Of a DNA stretch of 64,000 bases, positions 2,450 to 49,723 are shown one piece after another. Position 1 is the stretch's first letter, and each line of letters starts with the position of its first letter. The stretch lies in NCBI RefSeq assembly GCF_013122565.1, contig NZ_CP053258.1. One strand, 5' to 3'. The DNA is from Escherichia coli (GTDB lineage: Bacteria > Pseudomonadota > Gammaproteobacteria > Enterobacterales > Enterobacteriaceae). The position numbers and the translations under genes were made by a program. Below the pieces are notes generated by a model. That model was not told the origin of the DNA. It worked only from the letters and a program-made list of their open reading frames with translations, and made no database searches.

Positions 2450-3793
2450 ATGTTAAACAGTATTTTAGTCATACTCTGCTTGATCGCTGTAAGTGCGTTC
2501 TTCTCGATGTCCGAGATCTCGCTTGCCGCCTCACGCAAAATCAAACTTAAACTGCTGGCTGATGAAGGCAATATAAATGCCCAACGCGTTCTGAATATGC
2601 AGGAAAATCCCGGCATGTTCTTTACCGTGGTCCAAATCGGTCTGAACGCAGTGGCGATTCTCGGCGGTATCGTCGGTGATGCGGCATTTTCTCCAGCTTT
2701 TCACAGCCTGTTCTCCCGCTATATGTCGGCAGAGCTCTCTGAGCAACTGAGCTTTATTCTCTCTTTCTCGTTAGTGACTGGCATGTTTATCCTGTTTGCG
2801 GATTTAACCCCGAAACGCATCGGTATGATTGCGCCAGAAGCTGTGGCTTTGCGTATCATCAACCCGATGCGCTTCTGCCTGTACGTTTGCACCCCGCTGG
2901 TGTGGTTCTTCAACGGCCTGGCGAACATGATCTTCCGTATTTTCAAACTGCCAATGGTACGTAAAGATGACATCACTTCTGATGACATCTACGCGGTAGT
3001 GGAAGCCGGTGCGCTGGCGGGCGTGTTACGTAAACAGGAACACGAGCTGATTGAAAACGTCTTTGAGCTGGAATCCCGTACCGTTCCGTCGTCAATGACA
3101 CCGCGTGAAAACGTGATTTGGTTTGATCTCCACGAAGATGAGCAAAGTCTGAAGAATAAGGTGGCGGAACATCCGCACTCTAAGTTCCTCGTCTGTAATG
3201 AAGATATTGACCACATCATCGGCTATGTCGATTCTAAAGACCTGCTGAACCGCGTGCTGGCTAACCAAAGCCTGGCACTGAACAGCGGCGTACAAATTCG
3301 CAATACGCTGATTGTGCCGGATACGTTAACCCTTTCTGAAGCGTTGGAAAGTTTTAAAACCGCAGGTGAAGACTTCGCGGTGATCATGAACGAGTACGCG
3401 CTGGTAGTGGGGATCATCACCCTCAACGACGTGATGACCACGCTGATGGGCGATCTGGTCGGTCAGGGGCTGGAAGAGCAGATTGTCGCCCGTGATGAGA
3501 ACTCATGGCTGATTGACGGCGGCACCCCGATTGACGACGTCATGCGCGTGCTGGATATTGACGAGTTCCCGCAGTCGGGCAACTACGAAACCATCGGCGG
3601 CTTTATGATGTTTATGCTGCGTAAGATCCCGAAACGCACCGATTCGGTGAAATTCGCCGGCTACAAATTTGAAGTGGTGGATATCGATAACTACCGCATC
3701 GACCAGCTGCTGGTAACCCGGATCGACAGCAAGGCCACCGCCCTTTCGCCAAAACTGCCTGACGCTAAAGATAAAGAAGAAAGCGTCGCGTAA
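2450..3793 (+). CDS. ytfL: Inner membrane protein YtfL (CNNM/DUF21-CBS-CorC family)
   Basis: 447 aa ORF; hydrophobic N-terminal DUF21-like region followed by CBS/CorC-like C-terminus; synteny next to msrA. Confidence 0.9.
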   Translation: MLNSILVILCLIAVSAFFSMSEISLAASRKIKLKLLADEGNINAQRVLNMQENPGMFFTVVQIGLNAVAILGGIVGDAAFSPAFHSLFSRYMSAELSEQLSFILSFSLVTGMFILFADLTPKRIGMIAPEAVALRIINPMRFCLYVCTPLVWFFNGLANMIFRIFKLPMVRKDDITSDDIYAVVEAGALAGVLRKQEHELIENVFELESRTVPSSMTPRENVIWFDLHEDEQSLKNKVAEHPHSKFLVCNEDIDHIIGYVDSKDLLNRVLANQSLALNSGVQIRNTLIVPDTLTLSEALESFKTAGEDFAVIMNEYALVVGIITLNDVMTTLMGDLVGQGLEEQIVARDENSWLIDGGTPIDDVMRVLDIDEFPQSGNYETIGGFMMFMLRKIPKRTDSVKFAGYKFEVVDIDNYRIDQLLVTRIDSKATALSPKLPDAKDKEESVA

Positions 3794-3809
3794 CCCCCAG
3801 AAACATCAA

Positions 3810-3837
3810 CGGCTCCTGAATCAGGAGCCGTCTTATT
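3810..3837. terminator. Bidirectional intrinsic terminator between convergent ytfL and ytfK
   Basis: Perfect inverted repeat cggctcctga/tcaggagccg followed by T-rich tcttatt. Confidence 0.7.
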
Positions 3838-3854
3838 ACTGCATAGCACTTTGG

Positions 3855-4061
3855 TTAAGCCATCTCTGTTTGCAGACGCATAACCTGACGGTTAACTTCG
3901 GACATCACTGACAAATGCAGCTTATCCTTCACTTTTGGGATAAGAATCTTACCCTTATCAAATTCAAAAGCGCCAACGTCCTTGATGTATAACCGTCCAC
4001 GGAACAGGATCTTTACGTACTTCGCCACCTGAAGTGGGTTGTACCGTTGGAAAATTTTCAT
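3855..4061 (-). CDS. ytfK: Small protein YtfK (68 aa)
   Basis: Translation [38 protein letters not shown]...; start chosen at internal ATG giving 68 aa. Confidence 0.88.
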
Positions 4062-4385
4062 TGTTATCTCCTGCTGAGTATTACGCCTGTGCGGTGCCAC
4101 AATCGGCCCAACTATTATGAGGCGCAAATTTTAATGCTTAGTGACTATAGACTATCCGGGCAATGTTTCCACCGCGTATAACTTTTTTTACCTAAAGGTT
4201 ACAATTATTCAGAATTATCTTTTTACCGAAGCGCGGTCTTCAGTATAAGCATTCATTTTTCATATGATTTGTGCGCTTGACCGCAAACTGGCATCACACT
4301 TGCGGGAAATTCGATAAATAGCACATATGATTAAAACTCAGACCCAAGTGGTCGGATCACCTGCATATCATAAGAAGGAAACACC

Positions 4386-6893: not shown

Positions 6894-7082
6894 TTCTCCA
6901 CCTCGTCTCTGTGAGCGGTGTTAACTTATTGTTTTACTTATACCCTATCGTTAATGAATGCGCCAACTGTGATAGTGTCATCATTTTCAAAGCGTAAAAT
7001 TGTGGCATTCTTCACTGTTCTATAAGTAAGACGTTTATTCTCCCTTTTCTTTCGTATTCCCGATGATAAAAGGATGTCCCTG

Positions 7083-29094: not shown

Positions 29095-29508
<414 letters not shown>

Positions 29509-29816
29509 TTATTCAGCCTCCTGTCTGGGTCAGCCGAATCCCGGGGAGGCAAGGAACGTGTTAAAGGTCGGCTGAAAAATGACGCGTTATAGTACTGACA
29601 TACCCCGCTAAACTCAAGGGCAGAGCCGAAATAAATCTCCCCTTTCGCAAATAACCTCTAAACCGCTGATTTGGAGTTCATCACACTTCATCATGGTGTT
29701 TTTTCGAACAACTGCATCAGAAATGGTCACCATCAACTTCTTTATCATTGATTAAAATTAAATCAGAAGATCATCACAGAGGAGAGCACACAAAGTCAGC
29801 CGTCGAGGAGGTATCT

Positions 29817-40332: not shown

Positions 40333-40415
40333 TGTGTCTCCCTCCATCAATGGCAGTCACCATTAGTATGGTCACTGCCATGGATTCATGACAGAAAGAG
40401 ATTGCTAAAACATTC

Positions 40416-41579
40416 TTATCCAGCAATGTAATGCGGAACGAAACGTGAGGTGTCTTTGGTGATCAGTGTGTTATCTTCACGGATCCCCATTCCGCACGCT
40501 TCATCATCGACAATCCAGCTACCGATGAGTGTGTAGCTATCGCCAAACCGCGGCAGAGGTTGAAACGCCTGGTAGATCATCGGTTCATCGGCGTAATCAC
40601 CATCAGCGTGGTCAACGACGTTATTCTGGCCGTCGAAAATGGTGACATTTCCGCCTTCACGCGAGTAGATCGGTTTACGCACATAGCTTTCGCCAGCGGC
40701 AATCTGCGGTTTTTCACCCTCAAACCAGGATGCAAGAAGGTTAGGATGACCAGGGAAGAAGCGCCAAAGCAGCGGCATTAGCCCTTTATTACTCAAGATA
40801 CTTTTCCATAACGGCTCCACCCATTGCTCGCGATGCTTGCGCAGCAGCGGACCGTTATCGTCACGCATCATCCACTCAAGCGGATACAGCTTAAATGCAC
40901 GCTGGATGACATTATCATCAAGATCGGTCAGTACGCCGCCGACGCCCAAACCGAGATCTTCAATGTAGATAAACCGCGACTCCTGCCCTGCCTGCTGGGC
41001 GCAGTCCTGCAAGTACAGCACGGTACTCCTGTCTTCATCGGTGTCCTGACAGCAGCAGAAATAAAACGGCTCCCGGCTATAAAGCTCGCTAAAGCGTGAA
41101 ATCAGGCGTTCCTGAATGGCATTGTACTGATCGGCATCACGCGGAATAATGCCGCTGCGCCGGGCATCCTCCAGCCACAACCACTGGAAATAAGCCGACT
41201 CATACAACGAGGTCGGCGTATCGGCGTTGTACTCCAGCAGCTTCACCGGCGCATTGCCACACCAGGCAAAATCCATCCGGCCATACAGCGAAGGATCGCG
41301 TGCGCGCCAGCTTTCAGCGATCACATCCCAGTACAACGGCGGGATCGCCAGTTGCGTCAGGATCTCTTCGTCTTTAACCGCGCGATCCACCACCTCAAGG
41401 CACATCTGATGCAGTTCCGCAGTCGGTTTTTCGATCTGCTCTTCAATCTGGCGCAGAGTAAAACGGTAAGCCCGACTCTCGTCCCAATAGATTTCATTGT
41501 CGATGATATGAAAGTCGAAACCGTTGTCAGCGGCGATTTGGTCCAGATCCCGCCGCACAGGAACGTTGTGTCTCAGCAT
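40416..41579 (-). CDS. yjfC: Glutathionylspermidine synthase-like ATP-grasp protein YjfC
   Basis: 387 aa from MLRHNVPVRRDLDQIAADNGFDFHIIDNEIYWDESRAYRF. Confidence 0.88.
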   Translation of the reverse strand: MLRHNVPVRRDLDQIAADNGFDFHIIDNEIYWDESRAYRFTLRQIEEQIEKPTAELHQMCLEVVDRAVKDEEILTQLAIPPLYWDVIAESWRARDPSLYGRMDFAWCGNAPVKLLEYNADTPTSLYESAYFQWLWLEDARRSGIIPRDADQYNAIQERLISRFSELYSREPFYFCCCQDTDEDRSTVLYLQDCAQQAGQESRFIYIEDLGLGVGGVLTDLDDNVIQRAFKLYPLEWMMRDDNGPLLRKHREQWVEPLWKSILSNKGLMPLLWRFFPGHPNLLASWFEGEKPQIAAGESYVRKPIYSREGGNVTIFDGQNNVVDHADGDYADEPMIYQAFQPLPRFGDSYTLIGSWIVDDEACGMGIREDNTLITKDTSRFVPHYIAG

Positions 41580-41581
41580 GA

Positions 41582-42220
41582 TTAGCCTCCCCAATGCCCA
41601 CGGGCGCTGGAAGAACGACCATAGCCGCCGCGTGAAACGGTCGACGCTTTTCTGGTGGTAAAGCCGCCTGAAGAGTAAGACTCTTTTTTGCCAGAACCGG
41701 AGCGCCAGGAGTAATCACCAGAAGTGTTGCGCCAGACGGGGCGCGAAGCAAAAGATGAACCGCCGCTGTTATAAACAAACTGCTCATCGCGATCTTTACG
41801 AATAACCCGGCTTAACAAAAATCCAGAAACGACCGGGATCCAACTCTGTTCAACATTGTCGTAGTAGCAATTTTCGTACTTAGACTGACAATTCTGCTGA
41901 GTCATATTCTTCGGAACATCGGCATAAAATGCTGCTTTGGCGTTGTTCCAGCCACGCGCGCAAATGTCTGCATTATTACCGTCATCAATACAATCCTGCA
42001 CAGTCGAGTAAAACGTTCCGTCGCCGTCGTTATCGACATCGCTACTTTCACTCCATCCTTTGACTATTAAAAAAGCGGCACCGCCCATAAGCGCCAACGT
42101 TAAGTATTTTTGTGCGTAACGATTGCGACGCGGTTCAAAAGGATTATTCGGTCTACCAATGCGACTGATCGCTCCGTGACCAATTTTACTGTTATTTCTT
42201 GATTTGCGTTTTCTGGCCAT
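41582..42220 (-). CDS. yjfM: DUF1190-family protein YjfM
   Basis: 212 aa, basic N-terminus, Gly/Ser-rich C-terminus; operon position. Confidence 0.82.
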   Translation of the reverse strand: MARKRKSRNNSKIGHGAISRIGRPNNPFEPRRNRYAQKYLTLALMGGAAFLIVKGWSESSDVDNDGDGTFYSTVQDCIDDGNNADICARGWNNAKAAFYADVPKNMTQQNCQSKYENCYYDNVEQSWIPVVSGFLLSRVIRKDRDEQFVYNSGGSSFASRPVWRNTSGDYSWRSGSGKKESYSSGGFTTRKASTVSRGGYGRSSSARGHWGG

Positions 42221-42229
42221 GATCGTCCA

Positions 42230-42628
42230 TTACCATGTCATACAAGCTGCGTTAAAAATACCGCCAGCCAGCGCGGCGGTTCCCATAAACATTCCTGCTG
42301 CGGTATTGTGATTAATAATTTTTTCGCTTAATGCGGGCATATAAAGTCTGACACCAGCAAAAACGAGTAACTGAATCACTAGTGCGATCCCGCCCCAGGC
42401 GAAATAGTCTGGAATACTCACCGCATTGATTGCCGCACTGGATAAGGGGATCACGTAACCCAACAATGTACCGCTGAATGCCAGTGACGCCGCGGTATTA
42501 TTGTTTTTGATTAATTGCCATTCGTTGTGCGGTGTAATTTTGGAGTAGATAAACAGAAAAATAATCACCATAGCCACGCCAATAAAAAAATAGGCACTAA
42601 AGGCAAGAAGTGAATCCAGTATATGCAT
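42230..42628 (-). CDS. yjfL: DUF350-family inner membrane protein YjfL
   Basis: 132 aa from MHILDSLLAFSAYFFIGVAMVIIFLFIYSKI. Confidence 0.82.
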   Translation of the reverse strand: MHILDSLLAFSAYFFIGVAMVIIFLFIYSKITPHNEWQLIKNNNTAASLAFSGTLLGYVIPLSSAAINAVSIPDYFAWGGIALVIQLLVFAGVRLYMPALSEKIINHNTAAGMFMGTAALAGGIFNAACMTW

Positions 42629-42645
42629 TGTAAACGTCCTTGTAA

Positions 42646-43305
42646 TTAACCAATAATATGAAGTGATGTCAGCGGGATATCGACACCCAACGCGCGCGAA
42701 AATAACCACTCTGGCTCGCCGAGATCGTTAAAAGATTCCTCACCATTTAATAGCAAATATTCGTAAGTATCTTCAGTCACTTGCCGTTGGTAGCCCATGG
42801 TAAAATTATGGACCTCCCATTTGGCATGGTTTTGATTTTCTACTTTTTCCAGCATGTAGACGGGTTCGATATTTCCCGGTTCTTCGCTGTTAAAAAATCG
42901 CTGCCAGCGTTTTTCCTGCCAGTTTAAGGTCATTGCCCCCATCGCTTTGGCGTTGATCGCCTCGCGCCAGTGACTCTCTTTACTGATACCGTAGCTCTCT
43001 TCATAGACAAAGAGCTTGATATCATCAATGTCATCAATATCTTTGCCGCCGGTAGTATTGATTTGCAGAAACTCATCGCCTGAAGTGTAGTAGCGGAAAA
43101 TCTGGCTACCGCCGCCCAGATCGATGTGACTGACAGCGGCTACCGTAAATTCCTCACCCGGCAGCGCAATCAGCAATTCATCTTCCAGCAAACGAAACGC
43201 TAACGTGTCGAGCGTAAAGCCACTATTGAGATGAAGTCCCAGCGGACCGCGAGCGATAGCAGGCTTATTATCCTTGCCAAACAGACGCTGGAAAAAACCA
43301 GACAT
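42646..43305 (-). CDS. yjfK: DUF2491-family protein YjfK
   Basis: 219 aa MSGFFQRLFGKDNKPAIARGPLGLHLNSGF...; operon position. Confidence 0.82.
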   Translation of the reverse strand: MSGFFQRLFGKDNKPAIARGPLGLHLNSGFTLDTLAFRLLEDELLIALPGEEFTVAAVSHIDLGGGSQIFRYYTSGDEFLQINTTGGKDIDDIDDIKLFVYEESYGISKESHWREAINAKAMGAMTLNWQEKRWQRFFNSEEPGNIEPVYMLEKVENQNHAKWEVHNFTMGYQRQVTEDTYEYLLLNGEESFNDLGEPEWLFSRALGVDIPLTSLHIIG

Positions 43306-43355
43306 ATTTTATCCTTAAAATAGTTGCCAGCCTTGCAGTGAGGCTGGCAAAAAAA

Positions 43356-44054
43356 TTACTCGCCCTGTTGGCGTTGCAGTCTTGCTAATACATCCTGGGC
43401 GCTACTTTTATTGCTACCGCCAATTCCGGCTTCTGCCAGCTTTTCGTCAAGGTCGCGACCGTCTGCGACTTTCTCCAACTGTGCGGCAGCATCCAGGCGA
43501 GCCTGACGTTCGGCCTGACGCGTTTGCAGGCGTTTTAAGGATTCTGCCGCTGTCGAAACGCTGGAAGATGCGCCAACGGTAGAGGTTGTTACAGCCTGTT
43601 GTGCACGCTGCATGGCTTCAGTGGCTTTAACGACTTCCATTTGCTGCTCAAACTGAGCGATACGCTGCGCTGTCGCTGTAACTGCTTTTTCCACGCCATC
43701 ACGGGAGACTTCCAGATTCGACAACACTTGCTCTTCAGCGGTAATGAGATTCTCAAGGCGCGCGATTTCTTCAGCAACTTCGTTAATCAACGACGGATTA
43801 ACGTTCTTGCTTAACGCTTCCAGCGCACGAGCTTCCAGACTGGCTTTGCGCTCACGTAAATCTTTCAGCTTATCGTGACTTAACTTCACCCGCGCCAGCA
43901 GATCAACGCGAGATTTTCCGGCTTTATCGAGTTCAGCTTTAGCGTCACGAATATGCTGTTCCAGCATGCGCACACCCTGGGTTTCTTCAATGGATTCTTC
44001 CGCCTGAGAGATAAACGATTTCCCCAGCGTAAATAAACTTTTTAAAATTCCCAT
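43356..44054 (-). CDS. yjfJ: PspA/IM30-family protein YjfJ
   Basis: 232 aa coiled-coil; operon position. Confidence 0.85.
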   Translation of the reverse strand: MGILKSLFTLGKSFISQAEESIEETQGVRMLEQHIRDAKAELDKAGKSRVDLLARVKLSHDKLKDLRERKASLEARALEALSKNVNPSLINEVAEEIARLENLITAEEQVLSNLEVSRDGVEKAVTATAQRIAQFEQQMEVVKATEAMQRAQQAVTTSTVGASSSVSTAAESLKRLQTRQAERQARLDAAAQLEKVADGRDLDEKLAEAGIGGSNKSSAQDVLARLQRQQGE

Positions 44055-44072
44055 AAATACCCGTCCTTGTAA

Positions 44073-44474
44073 TTAGTGTGAATATTCTTCTGTAATTTCA
44101 GCCAGATCCAATGCGTTATCTACCAGCGAGGTTATCTCAAGCAGGATATCTTCAAGAGAAGATTTAAGCGATAACGCACCGAAAACAATGTAATACTCTT
44201 CTTGTTGTACGCTGGAGATTCCTACCGATGACAACGGCATCATCTTCTGATTTCTTAATAAGAAGGTATTAAATTCATCTGGATTGCTGATACTACTTAC
44301 CGGACAAATAAAGGTTTCGATAATCATTTGGCGGGAAGTAAAAAGAATATTGATTTGCAAATCGCCATAATCATTCATTTTAATAATTAATGCGTTCTCG
44401 CTATTTGTTACATCAATATTTTGTTCATGTTCAGTTTGCAGCGCCGTCGCCAGCGCCAACGGATTCCATGTCAT
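44073..44474 (-). CDS. yjfI: DUF2170-family protein YjfI
   Basis: 133 aa MTWNPLALATALQTEHEQNIDVTNSENALIIKMNDYGDLQ... Confidence 0.82.
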   Translation of the reverse strand: MTWNPLALATALQTEHEQNIDVTNSENALIIKMNDYGDLQINILFTSRQMIIETFICPVSSISNPDEFNTFLLRNQKMMPLSSVGISSVQQEEYYIVFGALSLKSSLEDILLEITSLVDNALDLAEITEEYSH

Positions 44475-44553
44475 ATATTATTCCATATAGATTAAGTTTA
44501 AATATTAATAAAATGAATATTTGCAGTACATAATTATCTTACCAGCTATAGAC

Positions 44554-44580
44554 AAAAAAAAACCATCCAAATCTGGATGG
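44554..44580 (-). terminator. Intrinsic terminator closing the accessory catabolic operon ahead of yjfI
   Basis: Minus strand reads hairpin ccatccagatttggatgg followed by a T-run of 9. Confidence 0.75.
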
Positions 44581-44664
44581 CTATTAAGAAGAACCAAAAA
44601 TTTAACGCTATGCATACGATAAAAAATGCGCCAGTCTACATACACTGACGCTAATGATTAGTCA

Positions 44665-46266
44665 CTACAAGTCTAACGACCGCTTCCACAACATAAAATC
44701 AAACTGTTCGAGTTTGTCTGCCTTCACGACGTAGTCCTTACTGGCAGTTTCAATAACTTTTTCAAATAATTCTCTACTCACATCTTCCAGCGGAGTGCCG
44801 TCAATCACTGGGCCACAGTCGAAATCAATCATGTCAGACAATCGTCTGGCAATCGTGCTGTTGGTGGATATTTTTAACACCGGAACAATCGGGTTACCGG
44901 TGGGCGTACCAAGACCCGTCGAGAAGATAACCACATTACATCCTGCTGCTACCAATCCGGTTACCGCGTCCACGTCATTGCCCGGAGTACACACCAACGA
45001 TAATCCACTATCGGGCATAGGCTCAGCGTAATCGCATACACTCACAATTGGCGCTCGCCCGCCTTTTTTCGCTGCTCCGGTAGATTTTATTGCGTCAGTA
45101 ATCAACCCATCCGCGATGTTGCCAAAACTTGGGTTATCCGCAATGGTGGTATCGAAAAAGTTCGCTGTCTTTTCGTAGCCTTGCATTAGATTGAGGAACT
45201 TTTTTTTATCCTCAAGATTAATACAACGCTTAACCATATCACCTTCTGCCCCACATAATTCTGGAAATTCTGCTAACCCGGAAGCGCCACCAAGCGTTGT
45301 CAACCAGTCAGAAACCAGCCCCATTGCAGGGTTGCCGGAGATACCAGAAAAACCATCGGAACCACCACACTTCATCCCCACTTTGAGACAGGAAAGAGGG
45401 ACCTCTACTCTTTCTGTCGGCTTCACCGCTTTCATTGCCGCGAAAGTCTGCTGTAAAGCGGTCTGCATCATCCGCTCTTCGCTGTCCCACTCCTGTTGGA
45501 GAAAGTAGAGCGCAGGTTTATCAAATTCAGGATTACGTCTCGCCAGCGCATCCTTAAACATTTTCTGCTGCGCTTTTTCACATCCTAAACTGAATACCGT
45601 CATACCGATTACATTCGGATGGTCAGCATAAGCAGCTAATACATCGCACATAGTTTCACAGTCTGAAGTTGCACCACCACAACCACTGGTGACCGTAATA
45701 CAGCGAACACCTTCAATATGCGGAAACATTCTCGCGGTTTCGATCAGTTCATCGCTACCGGACGTCAGATTAAGAGCAAACTTTTTCAGTGAGTTATTGG
45801 TATAACCCAAAGCATCATTCAAAGCATTGGTTAACTTACTGACATTACGGTTCTCGCAAAATACCAATGGAAAGACTAACCAGTAACTGGCAGTACCCAC
45901 TCTGCCATCGTCACGGACATAACCTTTAAAAGTGCGGGTGCTCCAGTCAGAGACATCCGGTGCCTGCCAGTGGTAGGGTTCAACATCCTCCAGTGTGACA
46001 GGAGCTGCATAGTGGCGAATATTATCAACGGTAATCGCTTCTCCCTTAACGATGGGACGCGTGGCCTTGCCAACTGGCGTACCGTACATCGAAACAATGC
46101 CATCCAGAGGAATATCTTGCGTCGCAAACTTATGTTTAGCCTTAACATCAGTTACTAACGTTATGTTGTCGTCATCCCACGAGTACGATTCTCCAGCGTG
46201 CAGGTCTTTCAACGCGACAATGAGATTATCGTTACTGTCGATACGTAATATTTTTTGCATAATCAT
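44665..46266 (-). CDS. UxaA/GarD-family sugar-acid dehydratase (altronate/galactarate dehydratase-like, SAF N-terminal domain)
   Basis: 533 aa; Cys-rich motifs (ITVTSGCGG, CGGSDGFSGISGNP) typical of the family; probable true start at second ATG (46260). Confidence 0.78.
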   Translation of the reverse strand: MIMQKILRIDSNDNLIVALKDLHAGESYSWDDDNITLVTDVKAKHKFATQDIPLDGIVSMYGTPVGKATRPIVKGEAITVDNIRHYAAPVTLEDVEPYHWQAPDVSDWSTRTFKGYVRDDGRVGTASYWLVFPLVFCENRNVSKLTNALNDALGYTNNSLKKFALNLTSGSDELIETARMFPHIEGVRCITVTSGCGGATSDCETMCDVLAAYADHPNVIGMTVFSLGCEKAQQKMFKDALARRNPEFDKPALYFLQQEWDSEERMMQTALQQTFAAMKAVKPTERVEVPLSCLKVGMKCGGSDGFSGISGNPAMGLVSDWLTTLGGASGLAEFPELCGAEGDMVKRCINLEDKKKFLNLMQGYEKTANFFDTTIADNPSFGNIADGLITDAIKSTGAAKKGGRAPIVSVCDYAEPMPDSGLSLVCTPGNDVDAVTGLVAAGCNVVIFSTGLGTPTGNPIVPVLKISTNSTIARRLSDMIDFDCGPVIDGTPLEDVSRELFEKVIETASKDYVVKADKLEQFDFMLWKRSLDL

Positions 46267-46293
46267 ATTCTTCCAGTCAGATGTTCAATCTTA

Positions 46294-47595
46294 TTAACTG
46301 TATGCTTTTGCTGCCTGTTGGCTCTTTTGCAGCAATCCAATCAATAATGCGCAGCCGATGGTAATTACAGACAACGCCATCAATCCGGCGATGCTGCTAT
46401 CCATTGCCCGATCAACCTCAACACGGATAAGAGGAGCAAGGAACGAGCAGAAAGCGCCCATCGTGGTGCAAAAACCGATCCCCGCAGCCAGTGCCGGACC
46501 AGTAAGAAGTTGTGGAGGGAAAGTCCAGAATATTGGCTGTACTGAGAGGAAACCAACCGCACTTAAACAAAGTGCACCAATCGCCACAACAGGCCCCGCA
46601 AATGCGGAAAGGGCAAGGCCGACAGCAGCAGCCAACATACACATAACCGAAATGGCCACACGCTGGGAAGGATTGCGGTCAGCAATTCGCGGAATGTAAT
46701 AGACGCCAAAAGCAGAGCACGCCCATGGTATTGCCGCGACTAATGACTGCTTAAAGCCAAGGCTTTCTCCCATCAGCGATGCAACCTGTGACGGAAGGAA
46801 AAACATTAAACCATATACTGATATCTGGATGGTGCCGTAGATTAATGCCAGATGCCAAACTTTGGCATTTTTCAATGCTGAAATCACTGAACTGGTTTCT
46901 GTTTTCTGTCGTTCAGATTCCAGTTGCTTATTCAAAGCGTCTTTTTCTTCCTGGGTAAGAAATCGCGCTTTCGTCGGATTATCATCAAGGTAGAACCAGG
47001 CAAAGATACCAAGCACTAATGCCGGCAATCCCTCAATGACAAACATCCAGAACCATCCTGGACGTCCCATCCAGCCATGTAGTTCAAGTAAAGCTCCCGA
47101 TATTGGCGAACCGAGCGTTAACGCCAGCGGCACCCCCAACACAAATATTCCCACGACCGATCCGCGAACCTTGTTAGGAAAATAAATGGATGCGAGCAGT
47201 AAAATTCCGGGATAGAACCCCGCCTCGCCCAGCCCTAACAGAAAGCGCAAAATAATAAATTGCGTTTCACTGGTGACAAATCCCGTCATTGCCGAGAGAA
47301 GGCCCCAAATTGCAGTTGTAATACTTAACCACTTTTGTGCGCCGATTTTATTGAGGATCAGGTTAGCTGGAATGCCGAAAAGTGCATAGGCAGCGAAAAA
47401 TATTCCTGCACCGAGAGCGAATGCCGACTCTGATAATCCAATATCCAGTTTCATTGCATCTTTGGCAAAGCCAACATTTACCCGATCAATAAAGGCAACA
47501 AAATACATTATGAACATTAAGGGTACTAAACGTTTCCACGATTTTTGAATTGCGGAATTCAACAGCGGATTATCGTATTGGGTTATATTAGCCAT
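46294..47595 (-). CDS. MFS transporter, ACS family (sugar-acid/anion permease)
   Basis: 433 aa; N-terminal FIDRVNVGFA motif, 12-TM pattern; AAGGA RBS. Confidence 0.85.
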   Translation of the reverse strand: MANITQYDNPLLNSAIQKSWKRLVPLMFIMYFVAFIDRVNVGFAKDAMKLDIGLSESAFALGAGIFFAAYALFGIPANLILNKIGAQKWLSITTAIWGLLSAMTGFVTSETQFIILRFLLGLGEAGFYPGILLLASIYFPNKVRGSVVGIFVLGVPLALTLGSPISGALLELHGWMGRPGWFWMFVIEGLPALVLGIFAWFYLDDNPTKARFLTQEEKDALNKQLESERQKTETSSVISALKNAKVWHLALIYGTIQISVYGLMFFLPSQVASLMGESLGFKQSLVAAIPWACSAFGVYYIPRIADRNPSQRVAISVMCMLAAAVGLALSAFAGPVVAIGALCLSAVGFLSVQPIFWTFPPQLLTGPALAAGIGFCTTMGAFCSFLAPLIRVEVDRAMDSSIAGLMALSVITIGCALLIGLLQKSQQAAKAYS

Positions 47596-47645
47596 AAATA
47601 AATCCTTAGTTCTGTTGGTAAGATATTCTATTTATAGGTTTTATA

Positions 47646-48539
47646 TTATTTATAATAATCGGTGACAGATAAAATTTCCTGCAATCTCCGGGATTGAATA
47701 TCATCAAGTATATTAAATGGTGAAGAACACCGCTCTGATTGAATAACCCCCTTTAACTGAAGGGCTTTTTTGAAAGTGGGAATAAAAGGAGAATTCACGC
47801 TGTAAACGGCCATTAGTTGATCGACTATCTGCTGATGCTGCGCGACTGCAAGTAAATCGTCATTCGTGAATGCTTGCATCCAGGAGGCAAAAAATTCAGG
47901 GACAATATTGGATAAACCACCAATACAGCCATCTCCACCAGATAGTATGTTGTGGGCAAAATTATTGTCATATCCTGCATACACTTCAAAATGAGGGATA
48001 TTTTTCTTTACGGTATTGATAACCTGCGCAGTATGGAAAGCATCAGGGACGGTATCTTTCATACCAATAATATTGGGATATTTATCTGCCAGTCGTAAAC
48101 AAATCTCTGGTGATACGCTGTACCCGGTTCTCTCCGGGAAGTTATAAATAAAAATATGAGCCGGGGTTTGGCTTGCAATCGTACTGTAGAAATCAAAAAT
48201 AGCTTCATCATCCAGAGGGAAATAATAAGGACTGATGATCATCACACCATCCAATCCTTGCTCCCAGGCGTAATTGGCCAGTGATATTGATTCATTGACG
48301 TCCATGCGACTGGCTCCGGCATAAACCTTCATATCGCCTCGGGAAAACTCACTACAGGTTTTAATCATTTGGCGGGCGTTTTCCATATTAAGAGAAAAAA
48401 ACTCACCAGTACTGCCCATCACAACAAACCCGGACACGTGATTTTTAATAAAATCATAAACCTGAGTGTTTTGCTCAGGATCGATTCGCCCTTGTTCATC
48501 AAATATGGTGACAACGGGGGTTATGTAACGACTTTTCAT
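47646..48539 (-). CDS. Dihydrodipicolinate synthase-family (class I) aldolase, probable 2-keto-3-deoxy sugar-acid aldolase
   Basis: 297 aa; N-terminal TPVVTIFDEQGRID and GSTGE motif; GAGGTAGG RBS. Confidence 0.8.
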   Translation of the reverse strand: MKSRYITPVVTIFDEQGRIDPEQNTQVYDFIKNHVSGFVVMGSTGEFFSLNMENARQMIKTCSEFSRGDMKVYAGASRMDVNESISLANYAWEQGLDGVMIISPYYFPLDDEAIFDFYSTIASQTPAHIFIYNFPERTGYSVSPEICLRLADKYPNIIGMKDTVPDAFHTAQVINTVKKNIPHFEVYAGYDNNFAHNILSGGDGCIGGLSNIVPEFFASWMQAFTNDDLLAVAQHQQIVDQLMAVYSVNSPFIPTFKKALQLKGVIQSERCSSPFNILDDIQSRRLQEILSVTDYYK

Positions 48540-48867
48540 GCCTACCTCATCATAGTTTTATTGTTCATATATACAAACAACGTTTTTAAATACAAACTAA
48601 AATGAGTATACCCAACCTCAGAAATGAGTCAAATTTAGCCAATCACAGAAGTGATACAGCTAAGCTATTGATATATTTGGAGTAATTATGTCGGAGACCT
48701 GCATAAAAAACAATCGCAGTTCTTTTTTTATCCGTTTTATGACCAGTATCACGCTAAAAAAGGACTGATGGGCTCAACAGCAGTCAAGGAACGCGAGGGG
48801 GTTAATTTACTTGAATTATAATTCTCCCTAGAATGGTGCATTACTCATGGTAAGGGAAATAGTCATT

Positions 48868-49647
48868 ATGGAACATAAGCCTACCATCCGGGTGTTAGAG
48901 ATACTGGAAGCACTGGCAGCGGAGAATCAGGGTGTTTCATTAACTCACCTTTCGGAAAAAACAGGCATCCTGAAAGGAACGATTTTTCCCATCCTCAAAA
49001 CGCTGGTTGAACAGCGGTACATCAGTTATGACGCTAATACCCAGCTTTATAATCTGGGGATCTCCTGCTCGATTCTGTCCCGTGCTTTCCTCGACAGATC
49101 GTACTGGTTAAAAATGGTTTACAAAGAGATGAACAACATTGTCAAAGAGTGCAATGAAGTTTGTCAGATGGGGATCCTGGACGGTGCAGATGTTTTATAT
49201 ATCAATAAGGTGCAGGCGGCACAAACCGTACAACTGGTTTCACATATTGGGACTCGTCTGCCTGCTATCTATTCTGCGCTGGGAAAAGCCATTATCTGTG
49301 AATACAGTGATCAACAAATTCGGCAACTCTACCCTGACGGTTTTGTTCCCATGACATCGTATAGCGTTACGACCCTGGAACAATTGCGCCAACAACTTGA
49401 GGATGCCAGAGTAAATGGCTATGCATTTGATAACAGGGAAATCAATGAGGAGACGGTATGTTATGCTGTTGCCTTAAAACAGCGAAATAAAACGCTTGCC
49501 GCCATCAGCATTTCAATACCCGTATTTCGTGCGACAAAAGAAAAAATTGCCGATGTCACGCGTATCCTGCTGAATGCACGTTCGCGTATTGAACAGGAAC
49601 TCAACACCTTACAGGATATCAATATCGGTATTGATTCCCACCATTAA
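48868..49647 (+). CDS. IclR-family transcriptional regulator
   Basis: N-terminal wHTH (RVLEILEALAAENQGVSLTHLSEKTGILKGTIFPIL) plus effector domain; start at ATG 48868 (alternative 48847). Confidence 0.85.
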   Translation: MEHKPTIRVLEILEALAAENQGVSLTHLSEKTGILKGTIFPILKTLVEQRYISYDANTQLYNLGISCSILSRAFLDRSYWLKMVYKEMNNIVKECNEVCQMGILDGADVLYINKVQAAQTVQLVSHIGTRLPAIYSALGKAIICEYSDQQIRQLYPDGFVPMTSYSVTTLEQLRQQLEDARVNGYAFDNREINEETVCYAVALKQRNKTLAAISISIPVFRATKEKIADVTRILLNARSRIEQELNTLQDINIGIDSHH

Positions 49648-49723
49648 GGGTATTTTCCATTCGAAGCCCGATACGTAAAAATTATCGGGCTAACAAAATA
49701 TCCATTGAATGGATAGCGATGAA

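Follow-up and report, generated by a model that had tools for sequence, protein, structure and literature searches.

We describe here the yjf operon of Escherichia coli, six genes (yjfI, yjfJ, yjfK, yjfL, yjfM and yjfC) that lie on the minus strand at 40416–44474 of a 64,000-nucleotide stretch of chromosomal DNA (contig NZ_CP053258.1 of assembly GCF_013122565.1), termed the window in what follows. This is a known, conserved E. coli operon that has already been described. Our main concern is its last two genes, which encode a membrane protein of the DUF1190 family (YjfM) and an ATP-grasp peptide-spermidine ligase (YjfC), and the possibility that the C-terminus of the former is a substrate of the latter.

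The gene calls were taken from the listing of open reading frames in the window and from the RefSeq annotations of a 98.5%-identical genome and of strain K-12. They bear out an earlier sequence-only reading, which had proposed six co-directional, tightly spaced genes and had given the start and end of the operon exactly; to this is to be added that the strand is the minus one. In the order of transcription the genes are yjfI (44073–44474; a DUF2170 protein, partner of YjfJ), yjfJ (43356–44054; a PspA/IM30-family protein), yjfK (42646–43305; a DUF2491 protein, soluble and β-rich), yjfL (42230–42628; a DUF350 polytopic inner-membrane protein), yjfM (41582–42220; DUF1190) and yjfC (40416–41579; GSP_synth family), separated by gaps of 18, 50, 17, 9 and 2 nucleotides. 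The Pfam matches follow the same order: DUF2170, PspA_IM30, DUF2491, DUF350, DUF1190 and GSP_synth. The mechanical listing of reading frames placed the start of yjfL too far 5′ (at a GTG) and that of yjfC likewise (at a TTG); the annotated ATG codons are where the Pfam match of YjfL and the Protein Data Bank (PDB) match of YjfC begin. Of 5426 complete E. coli genomes all but one (5425) match the 5-kb region, the best at 98.5% identity, and dozens of other Gammaproteobacteria keep the same arrangement of genes. The sequence-only reading had rightly called the operon conserved; its pairing of a PspA/IM30 protein with an ATP-grasp enzyme was likewise correct (see the Pfam E values below). Its description of the remaining products as small membrane proteins stands in part: hydrophobic segments occur in YjfL and YjfM only, and YjfI and YjfK have none.

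YjfC matches the GSP_synth profile (PF03738, E 4.4e-149) and, over residues 1–387, the solved YjfC structure 7UK6_A (E 8e-274), and it differs from K-12 YjfC at three amino acids. Four PDB entries cover YjfC and its paralogue YgiC (7UK6 and 7UK7 for YjfC; 7UK8 and 7UKA). Both genes carry the RefSeq product name peptide-spermidine ligase in K-12, the activity attributed to the two enzymes by Pederick 2023, as cited in PMC10948618 and PMC11762307; according to Sui 2012, as cited in PMC11762307, neither makes glutathionylspermidine. YjfC aligns to GspS (619 residues) only at 253–444, the best stretch, and to trypanothione synthetase (652 residues) at 501–626; with no amidase domain, it is not a bifunctional synthetase/amidase of the GspS type. 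Loss of ygiBC together with yjfMC worsens the growth defect of a tolC-null strain, as relayed by a citing paper, and ygiB is Cpx-regulated in Citrobacter rodentium, where its deletion causes peroxide sensitivity. The sequence-only reading had called the operon functionally undefined. This holds for the physiological role and for the substrate, which a 2025 review gives as unknown for YjfC and YgiC (PMC11762307). It no longer holds otherwise, as the ligase activity, the structures, a heat-tolerance operon and, in 2024 by comparative genomics, the gene set itself have all been published; literature that assigns functions, which that reading would have counted against itself, thus exists in part (ligase, heat tolerance, the tolC-null effect and the bac cluster discussed below).

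YjfM is a member of DUF1190 by its Pfam match (PF06693, E 1e-17), its four cysteines, its RGG(F/Y)G motif and its terminal Gly-Gly. After its basic N-terminus it has a hydrophobic anchor, an acidic domain that holds the four cysteines, a conserved W-x-P-x-x-x-G-F segment and a basic tail rich in Ser and Gly. Its segments carry net charges of +11, −9 and +7 (across the family, the middle domain has a median of −5.5 and the tail one of +8), a pattern that would fit a cytoplasmic tail. The invariant columns are C77, C87, C111, C118, T194, R197, G198, G199, G211 and G212, of which the last six fall in the tail motif TVSRGGYGRSSSARGHWGG. This motif is encoded at 41585–41641 on the minus strand and offers YjfC both a candidate docking site and, in its Gly-Gly-COOH, a candidate acceptor; the tail peptide STVSRGGYGRSSSARGHWGG carries the RGGYG motif and the GG end. 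Every intact YjfM orthologue has the ending ...SRGG(Y/F)GRSSSARGxWGG, and K-12 YgiB ends in ...TRGGFGES...SRSMGG. Of the six genes, yjfM has diverged furthest from its K-12 counterpart (95.8% nucleotide identity, 11 amino-acid changes). The changes cluster in the N-terminal anchor and include C31R and C56W, the latter removing from the window's YjfM the lipobox-like cysteine of K-12, Salmonella and Klebsiella; none of them falls in the C-terminal motif.

A word-based search for YjfM homologues reached only Enterobacterales, and we used instead a profile search run exhaustively over 1.84 billion representative proteins, which gave 1161 members of the DUF1190 family and 139 new representatives at the 50%-identity level. 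A Gly-Gly end is found in 113 of these representatives and a Gly-Ser end in 10; most of the others are fragments. The DUF1190 proteins encoded next to ligase genes behave in the same way: 75 of 79 end in GG, two in GS, and two are frameshifted. The two frameshifted sequences, annotated with an LA end, are not true exceptions, since the frameshifts hide ...WGG and ...RGG ends; when they are read through, 77 of the 79 end in GG. The expectation that DUF1190 proteins with another end would have no ligase neighbour was also rejected, as the genes of four Ser-ending representatives are all followed by a ligase gene. The tails share a common build, namely a TxSRGG(F/Y)G motif, a spacer of 1–46 residues rich in Ser, Gly, Lys and Arg, and an end formed by an aromatic residue or Met followed by Gly-Gly; 151 of 207 tails (73%) close with WGG, FGG or MGG. 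Acidic residues are nearly absent after the motif, where Asp and Glu together make up 0.7% of positions against 9.0% elsewhere in the protein, and 186 of the 207 tails contain none at all. In GspS-type enzymes the glycine carboxylate of glutathione serves as acyl donor. From this precedent within the enzyme family and from the acid-free tail we propose the tail C-terminus of DUF1190 proteins as the natural acceptor.

The genomic neighbourhoods of the ligases point to the same pair of genes. A profile built from four YjfC-family ligases retrieved 80 loci, mostly from Gammaproteobacteria with a few from Alphaproteobacteria, in data holding one genome per species, and these loci were annotated with home-made hidden Markov models. 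In 78 of the 80 the gene directly 5′ of the ligase gene encodes a DUF1190 protein; in one locus the DUF1190 gene lies elsewhere in the cluster, and in one there is none. The order DUF1190 and then ligase is also seen at three unrelated metagenomic DUF1190 genes. With the two genes adjacent in 78 of 80 loci, the DUF1190–ligase pair, its members separated by no more than a few bases, is the invariant core of the system. Around it the other genes are arranged as shells. Thirty-five or 36 loci have the seven-gene order DUF2170–PspA–K+ channel–DUF2491–DUF350–DUF1190–ligase, and six have this order minus the channel, which is the E. coli form; the full order, counting the channel as optional, is thus found in ∼42 loci across distant Gammaproteobacteria, with junctions that are short or overlapping. 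About 15 loci consist of DUF350–DUF1190–ligase, 12 of DUF1190–ligase alone (the ygiBC type), and a few of channel–DUF350–DUF1190–ligase. In total a DUF350 gene precedes the pair in ∼67 loci, and the pair occurs without any PspA gene in ∼32, to which ygiBC is to be added. The operon therefore has a nested build, with the DUF1190–ligase core surrounded by DUF350 and the PspA block as an optional outer shell. On one metagenomic contig a distant copy of the operon adjoins SIR2/TIR and nSTAND (NTPase) genes of the sort found in islands of defence against phages, probably by coincidence.

Contact between the ligase and the tail was modelled with AlphaFold2 (AF2), in a single run on a fusion in which the 30 C-terminal residues of YjfM were attached to YjfC through a Gly/Ser linker of 30 residues, using a paired alignment of 30 genomes. 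The mean predicted local distance difference test score (pLDDT) was 85.4, with ∼32 for the linker and ∼74 for GFTTRKASTVSRGGYGRSSS, where a short strand formed on TVSR. The model is supportive rather than decisive of binding of the conserved tail motif by YjfC.

YjfI matches DUF2170 (PF09938, E 9e-45) and the crystal structure of Pseudomonas aeruginosa BacA (8Q8O, E 6e-17); a CesT/Tir-like fold and a role as chaperone are reported for it in the literature (PMC10948618, PMC11237479). YjfJ aligns over residues 2–232 with the full length of the PspA_IM30 profile (PF04012, E 5.3e-58; profile positions 1–220 of 220). A sequence search of the PDB returned no match for YjfJ at E ≤ 0.01; a homology model of it has been built on Vipp1 (PMC12492005). 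The same search gave nothing useful for YjfK, for which no close solved structural relative was found. YjfL matches DUF350 (PF03994, E 2e-33) and has several hydrophobic stretches.

The widest gap in the operon, the 50-nucleotide spacer between yjfJ and yjfK (43306–43355), marks the place of the ancestral K+ channel gene. One E. coli locus (L008) has retained this gene between yjfJ and yjfK, at positions 3070–4140 of the locus; it encodes 356 residues with an Ion_trans_2 match and a weak TrkA_N match, and its start overlaps the yjfJ stop codon. Homology between the window and this locus ends near the yjfJ stop codon and returns at about the yjfK start. Among 5426 complete E. coli genomes just 19 keep the channel gene, which most versions of the operon outside E. 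coli possess. By these comparisons, the six-gene operon of E. coli is a channel-less derivative of a seven-gene ancestor. The spacer now contains a hairpin with a 10-bp stem on the minus strand (43350–43324; −17.1 kcal/mol, z = −3.1), which is not followed by a proper U-run. Its stem is identical in the window and in K-12, all three differences between them lying in the loop. The hairpin may attenuate transcription or stabilise the yjfIJ transcript.

Upstream, the operon is bounded by a hairpin on the minus strand at 44582–44561 followed by a run of nine T residues at 44560–44552. The terminator scan gives it a 9-bp stem with four G–C pairs and a 4-nucleotide loop, and its fold (−12.3 kcal/mol) stands out from shuffled controls (z = −3.1). 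The whole element (44552–44582), with its G+C-containing stem, short loop and U-run, has the makings of a rho-independent terminator, and the terminator that the sequence-only reading had placed at 44554–44580 corresponds to it and is credible. From the hairpin to the yjfI ATG the window and K-12 are identical except at two positions, and in K-12, which has no island here, the hairpin stands directly 3′ of rlmB. The K-12 match and the position after rlmB there identify it as the ancestral rlmB terminator and rule out that it was brought in with the accessory island which separates rlmB from it in the window. This catabolic island, which the sequence-only reading had also noted beside the operon, is real: it extends over ∼44590–49650, encodes a UxaA-family hydrolase, an MFS transporter, a DHDPS-family protein and a divergent IclR regulator, and is present in 518 of 5426 E. 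coli genomes at an identity of at least 99%. The alignments place its insertion between rlmB and the rlmB terminator. A second terminator-like hairpin (44620–44651 on the minus strand, stem 44651–44628) lies directly after the stop codon of the UxaA-family gene and came with the island; it has an 8-bp stem with five G–C pairs and the tail ATTTTTTATC (−13.7 kcal/mol, z = −3.75). The MFS gene of the island is an intact reading frame of 433 residues in the window and a pseudogene in the closest complete genome.

Between the terminator and yjfI lie 77 AT-rich nucleotides (44475–44551) without a recognisable consensus promoter. Upstream of yjfI we found no σ54 site (TGGCAC-N5-TTGCW, at most three mismatches), no σ70 match better than 8 of 12 positions and no CpxR match of note. 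This fits the reported silence of the operon in K-12 outside evolved strains: Rychel et al. 2025 (PMC12492005) describe yjfIJKL as a heat-tolerance operon whose iModulon shows activity in no K-12 data set other than those from heat-evolved strains, where it was activated, in a mutL hypermutator, by a 1-nucleotide deletion 80 bp upstream of yjfI. As the run of nine T residues occupies positions −88 to −80 from the yjfI ATG in K-12, we infer that this deletion is most simply a slippage from T9 to T8 in the T-run of the rlmB terminator. Loss of one U should not disable the terminator, and the simulated T9-to-T8 change made no better consensus promoter, so that neither effect accounts for the reported activation.

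Downstream of yjfC the RefSeq neighbour is aidB, beyond a spacer of 83 nucleotides (40333–40415, minus strand) in which the terminator scan found no canonical terminator. The sequence AAT-N6-GCAA at 40414–40402, which begins 2 nucleotides past the yjfC stop codon, is presumably an Ada-box-like site of the kind present in the aidB promoter. The presumed leader of aidB, before the GTG start codon, contains a 29-nucleotide near-perfect palindrome (40380–40352; −22.6 kcal/mol, z = −3.8) with no T-run following it. An Rfam scan of the whole window detected no RNA family within or adjoining the yjf operon; its matches elsewhere were an RpsF leader (29488–29572), the small RNA ES239 (6960–7082), STnc450 (2331–2388) and ES036 (CssrF; 2209–2251).

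Taken as a whole, the operon would be an envelope or inner-membrane stress module of nested parts in which YjfC puts spermidine on the C-terminal glycine of YjfM; this is the reading we prefer, at a probability of roughly 45%. Under normal conditions the operon would be silent, lacking a consensus promoter and having the old rlmB terminator and the island's second hairpin as a shield against transcription that arrives from upstream. When it is expressed, the hairpin past yjfJ could yield YjfI and YjfJ in excess of the downstream products, and YjfJ, held or delivered by YjfI, would provide membrane protection of the PspA type. YjfM would cross the inner membrane, the acidic domain with the four cysteines facing the periplasm and the basic tail rich in Ser and Gly reaching into the cytoplasm, where the TxSRGG(F/Y)G motif would be the docking point for YjfC. 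Using ATP, YjfC would then amidate the sole carboxyl group of the tail, that of the C-terminal glycine, with spermidine, in parallel to the action of GspS on the glycine of glutathione. The negative chain end would thereby become a polycation at the membrane surface, altering the contact of the tail with anionic lipids or with partners such as YjfL and, where present, the channel. A more specific form of the proposal, in which YjfM and YgiB are the physiological substrates of YjfC and YgiC, amidated with spermidine at the C-terminal glycine, and in which the membrane-tethered polyamine could gate or block the ancestral K+ channel, we regard as conjectural and on the whole somewhat doubtful. 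Were it true, envelope stress would be coupled to ion flux and to repair of the PspA type, in a manner comparable to the polyamine block of inward-rectifier channels.

Several observations weigh against modification of YjfM by YjfC. The published ligase activity was obtained with free peptides, according to the papers that cite it. In the AF2 model the last eight residues, SARGHWGG, fall below a pLDDT of 50 and are unplaced, so that the model backs binding of the motif and not catalysis on the terminal glycine. The topology is a further difficulty. A clear second transmembrane helix could not be established in DUF1190, the second hydrophobic segment being weak (median Kyte–Doolittle value 0.94 over 17 residues) and the conserved W-x-P-x-x-x-G-F stretch only mildly hydrophobic. 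Signal peptides of the lipoprotein type occur in most family members, and lipoboxes in 78 of 108. The tail could thus lie in the periplasm, where a cytoplasmic enzyme that depends on ATP would not reach it. About 10% of the representatives end in Ser and, in the four looked at, still have the ligase gene next to them. Finally, the reported iModulon comprises only yjfIJKL, and both the coupling of YjfJ, YjfI and YjfK to YjfM and YjfC and the co-transcription of all six genes are only supposed.

Three other explanations draw on parts of the same evidence. YjfM could be a membrane anchor or regulator of YjfC, with RGG(F/Y)G recruiting the ligase, spermidine going to a small soluble peptide or metabolite, and the terminal GG having some other purpose, such as stability or partner binding. 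The docked motif and unplaced GG of the AF2 model, the activity on peptides as relayed in PMC11762307 and the Ser-ending DUF1190 proteins all suit this account. It leaves unexplained the near-total lack of acidic residues in the tail and the preservation of an aromatic-Gly-Gly end across a spacer of variable length. The precedent within the enzyme family, in which glycine carboxylate of glutathione is the acceptor for GspS, also speaks for the terminal glycine, and we consider the anchor role possible but rather unlikely. The idea that yjfIJ and yjfKLMC are separate transcription units which merely adjoin each other would account for the hairpin between yjfJ and yjfK, for the wording ‘yjfIJ operon’ in one paper (PMC10948618) and for the many genomes that have the DUF350–DUF1190–ligase block alone. 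It is hard to reconcile with the retention of the full order, short or overlapping junctions included, in more than half of the ligase loci, or with the co-regulation of yjfIJKL as a single iModulon (PMC12492005), and the hairpin itself lacks a proper U-run; we think it quite improbable.

A polyamine-sensing PspA system, as proposed in PMC11237479, in which the levels of polyamines or their metabolites tune membrane remodelling of the PspA type, would require no covalent protein modification, and DUF1190 would then be a periplasmic lipoprotein that senses metal or redox state. The four invariant cysteines of the acidic domain, the lipoboxes in most family members, and the Cpx regulation of ygiB and peroxide sensitivity of its deletion in C. 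rodentium are what one would expect from such a sensor. The conservation of the DUF1190 tail has no place in it, however, and the many loci in which the pair stands without a PspA gene, ygiBC among them, argue that the pair functions independently of PspA, so that we hold this explanation to be unlikely.

What is new here are the DUF1190–ligase core, the features of the tail, the substrate hypothesis for YjfC and YgiC, the loss of the channel and the rlmB origin of the terminator. Their significance rests mainly on the substrate hypothesis, which concerns enzymes that have structures and in vitro activity and whose natural substrate is open, and also a PspA paralogue system, that of YjfJ, without a known trigger. 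If spermidinylation of YjfM by YjfC is true, C-terminal spermidinylation would be a new protein modification, and polyamines, tolC-associated physiology and membrane protection of the PspA type would be tied together.

Among known systems, the orthologous K-12 locus yjfIJKLMC (b4181–b4186) has the same six genes, order and spacing. The genes of the window are 95.8–99.3% identical to it in nucleotide sequence, the YjfJ and YjfL proteins are identical, and the differences are the four-gene accessory island between rlmB and the rlmB terminator and yjfI, and the yjfM allele with its 11 changed residues. A paralogous DUF1190 and peptide-spermidine ligase pair is present in tolC-ygiB-ygiC. YgiC is 51% identical to YjfC, and YgiB shares with YjfM the four cysteines, the W-x-P-x-x-x-G-(F/Y) segment, the RGGFG motif and the terminal GG; YgiB differs by its lipobox and by its tail, which is longer and has MGG at its end, and the locus differs in having no PspA, DUF2170, DUF2491 or DUF350 genes. 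GspS and trypanothione synthetase belong to the same ATP-grasp synthetase fold family (2IO7 and 2VOB, E 1e-32 to 1e-37) and likewise join a carboxylate to a polyamine; unlike bifunctional GspS, YjfC has 387 residues and no amidase domain. By analogy only, the proposed reaction also resembles those of RimK, which acts on ribosomal protein S6, and of tubulin tyrosine ligase, both ATP-grasp enzymes that modify one specific protein at its C-terminal carboxylate; they belong to other subfamilies and add amino acids, not a polyamine, and we claim no membership for YjfC.

With the classical Psp system (pspF/pspABCDE) the operon shares the PspA/IM30 family of YjfJ and a presumed role in membrane protection. 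None of the six yjf products matches the PspB or PspC families of Pfam, no gene for an enhancer-binding protein is annotated among the immediate neighbours (the island, rlmB and rnr upstream; aidB downstream), no σ54 promoter was found upstream of yjfI, and the partners of YjfJ are putative CesT-like, DUF2491 and polyamine-ligase proteins; by σ54/PspF and PspB/PspC alike the operon stands outside the classical Psp regulon. The bac cluster of P. aeruginosa (PA3732–PA3729) shares the DUF2170 and PspA-like dyad, BacA (8Q8O) and BacB being homologues of YjfI and YjfJ; it is associated with biofilms and stress, the crystal structure of BacA is known, and by its description it has four genes, with no DUF1190–ligase pair reported (PMC10948618). 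The operon also belongs with the CesT/Tir–PspA operons that Ravi et al. 2024 (PMC11237479) tie to polyamine metabolism and of which this gene set is one class. Their ‘third group’ (mSystems) comprises DUF2170, PspA, DUF2491, DUF350, DUF1190 and a GSP_synth-type ligase, all present in yjf, and the E. coli form has every gene of the CesT/Tir–PspA–ATP-grasp class in order save the K+ channel. The proposal of Ravi et al. that PspA-based membrane dynamics monitors polyamines (PMC11237479) agrees with the membrane-stress module that the sequence-only reading had seen in these six genes.

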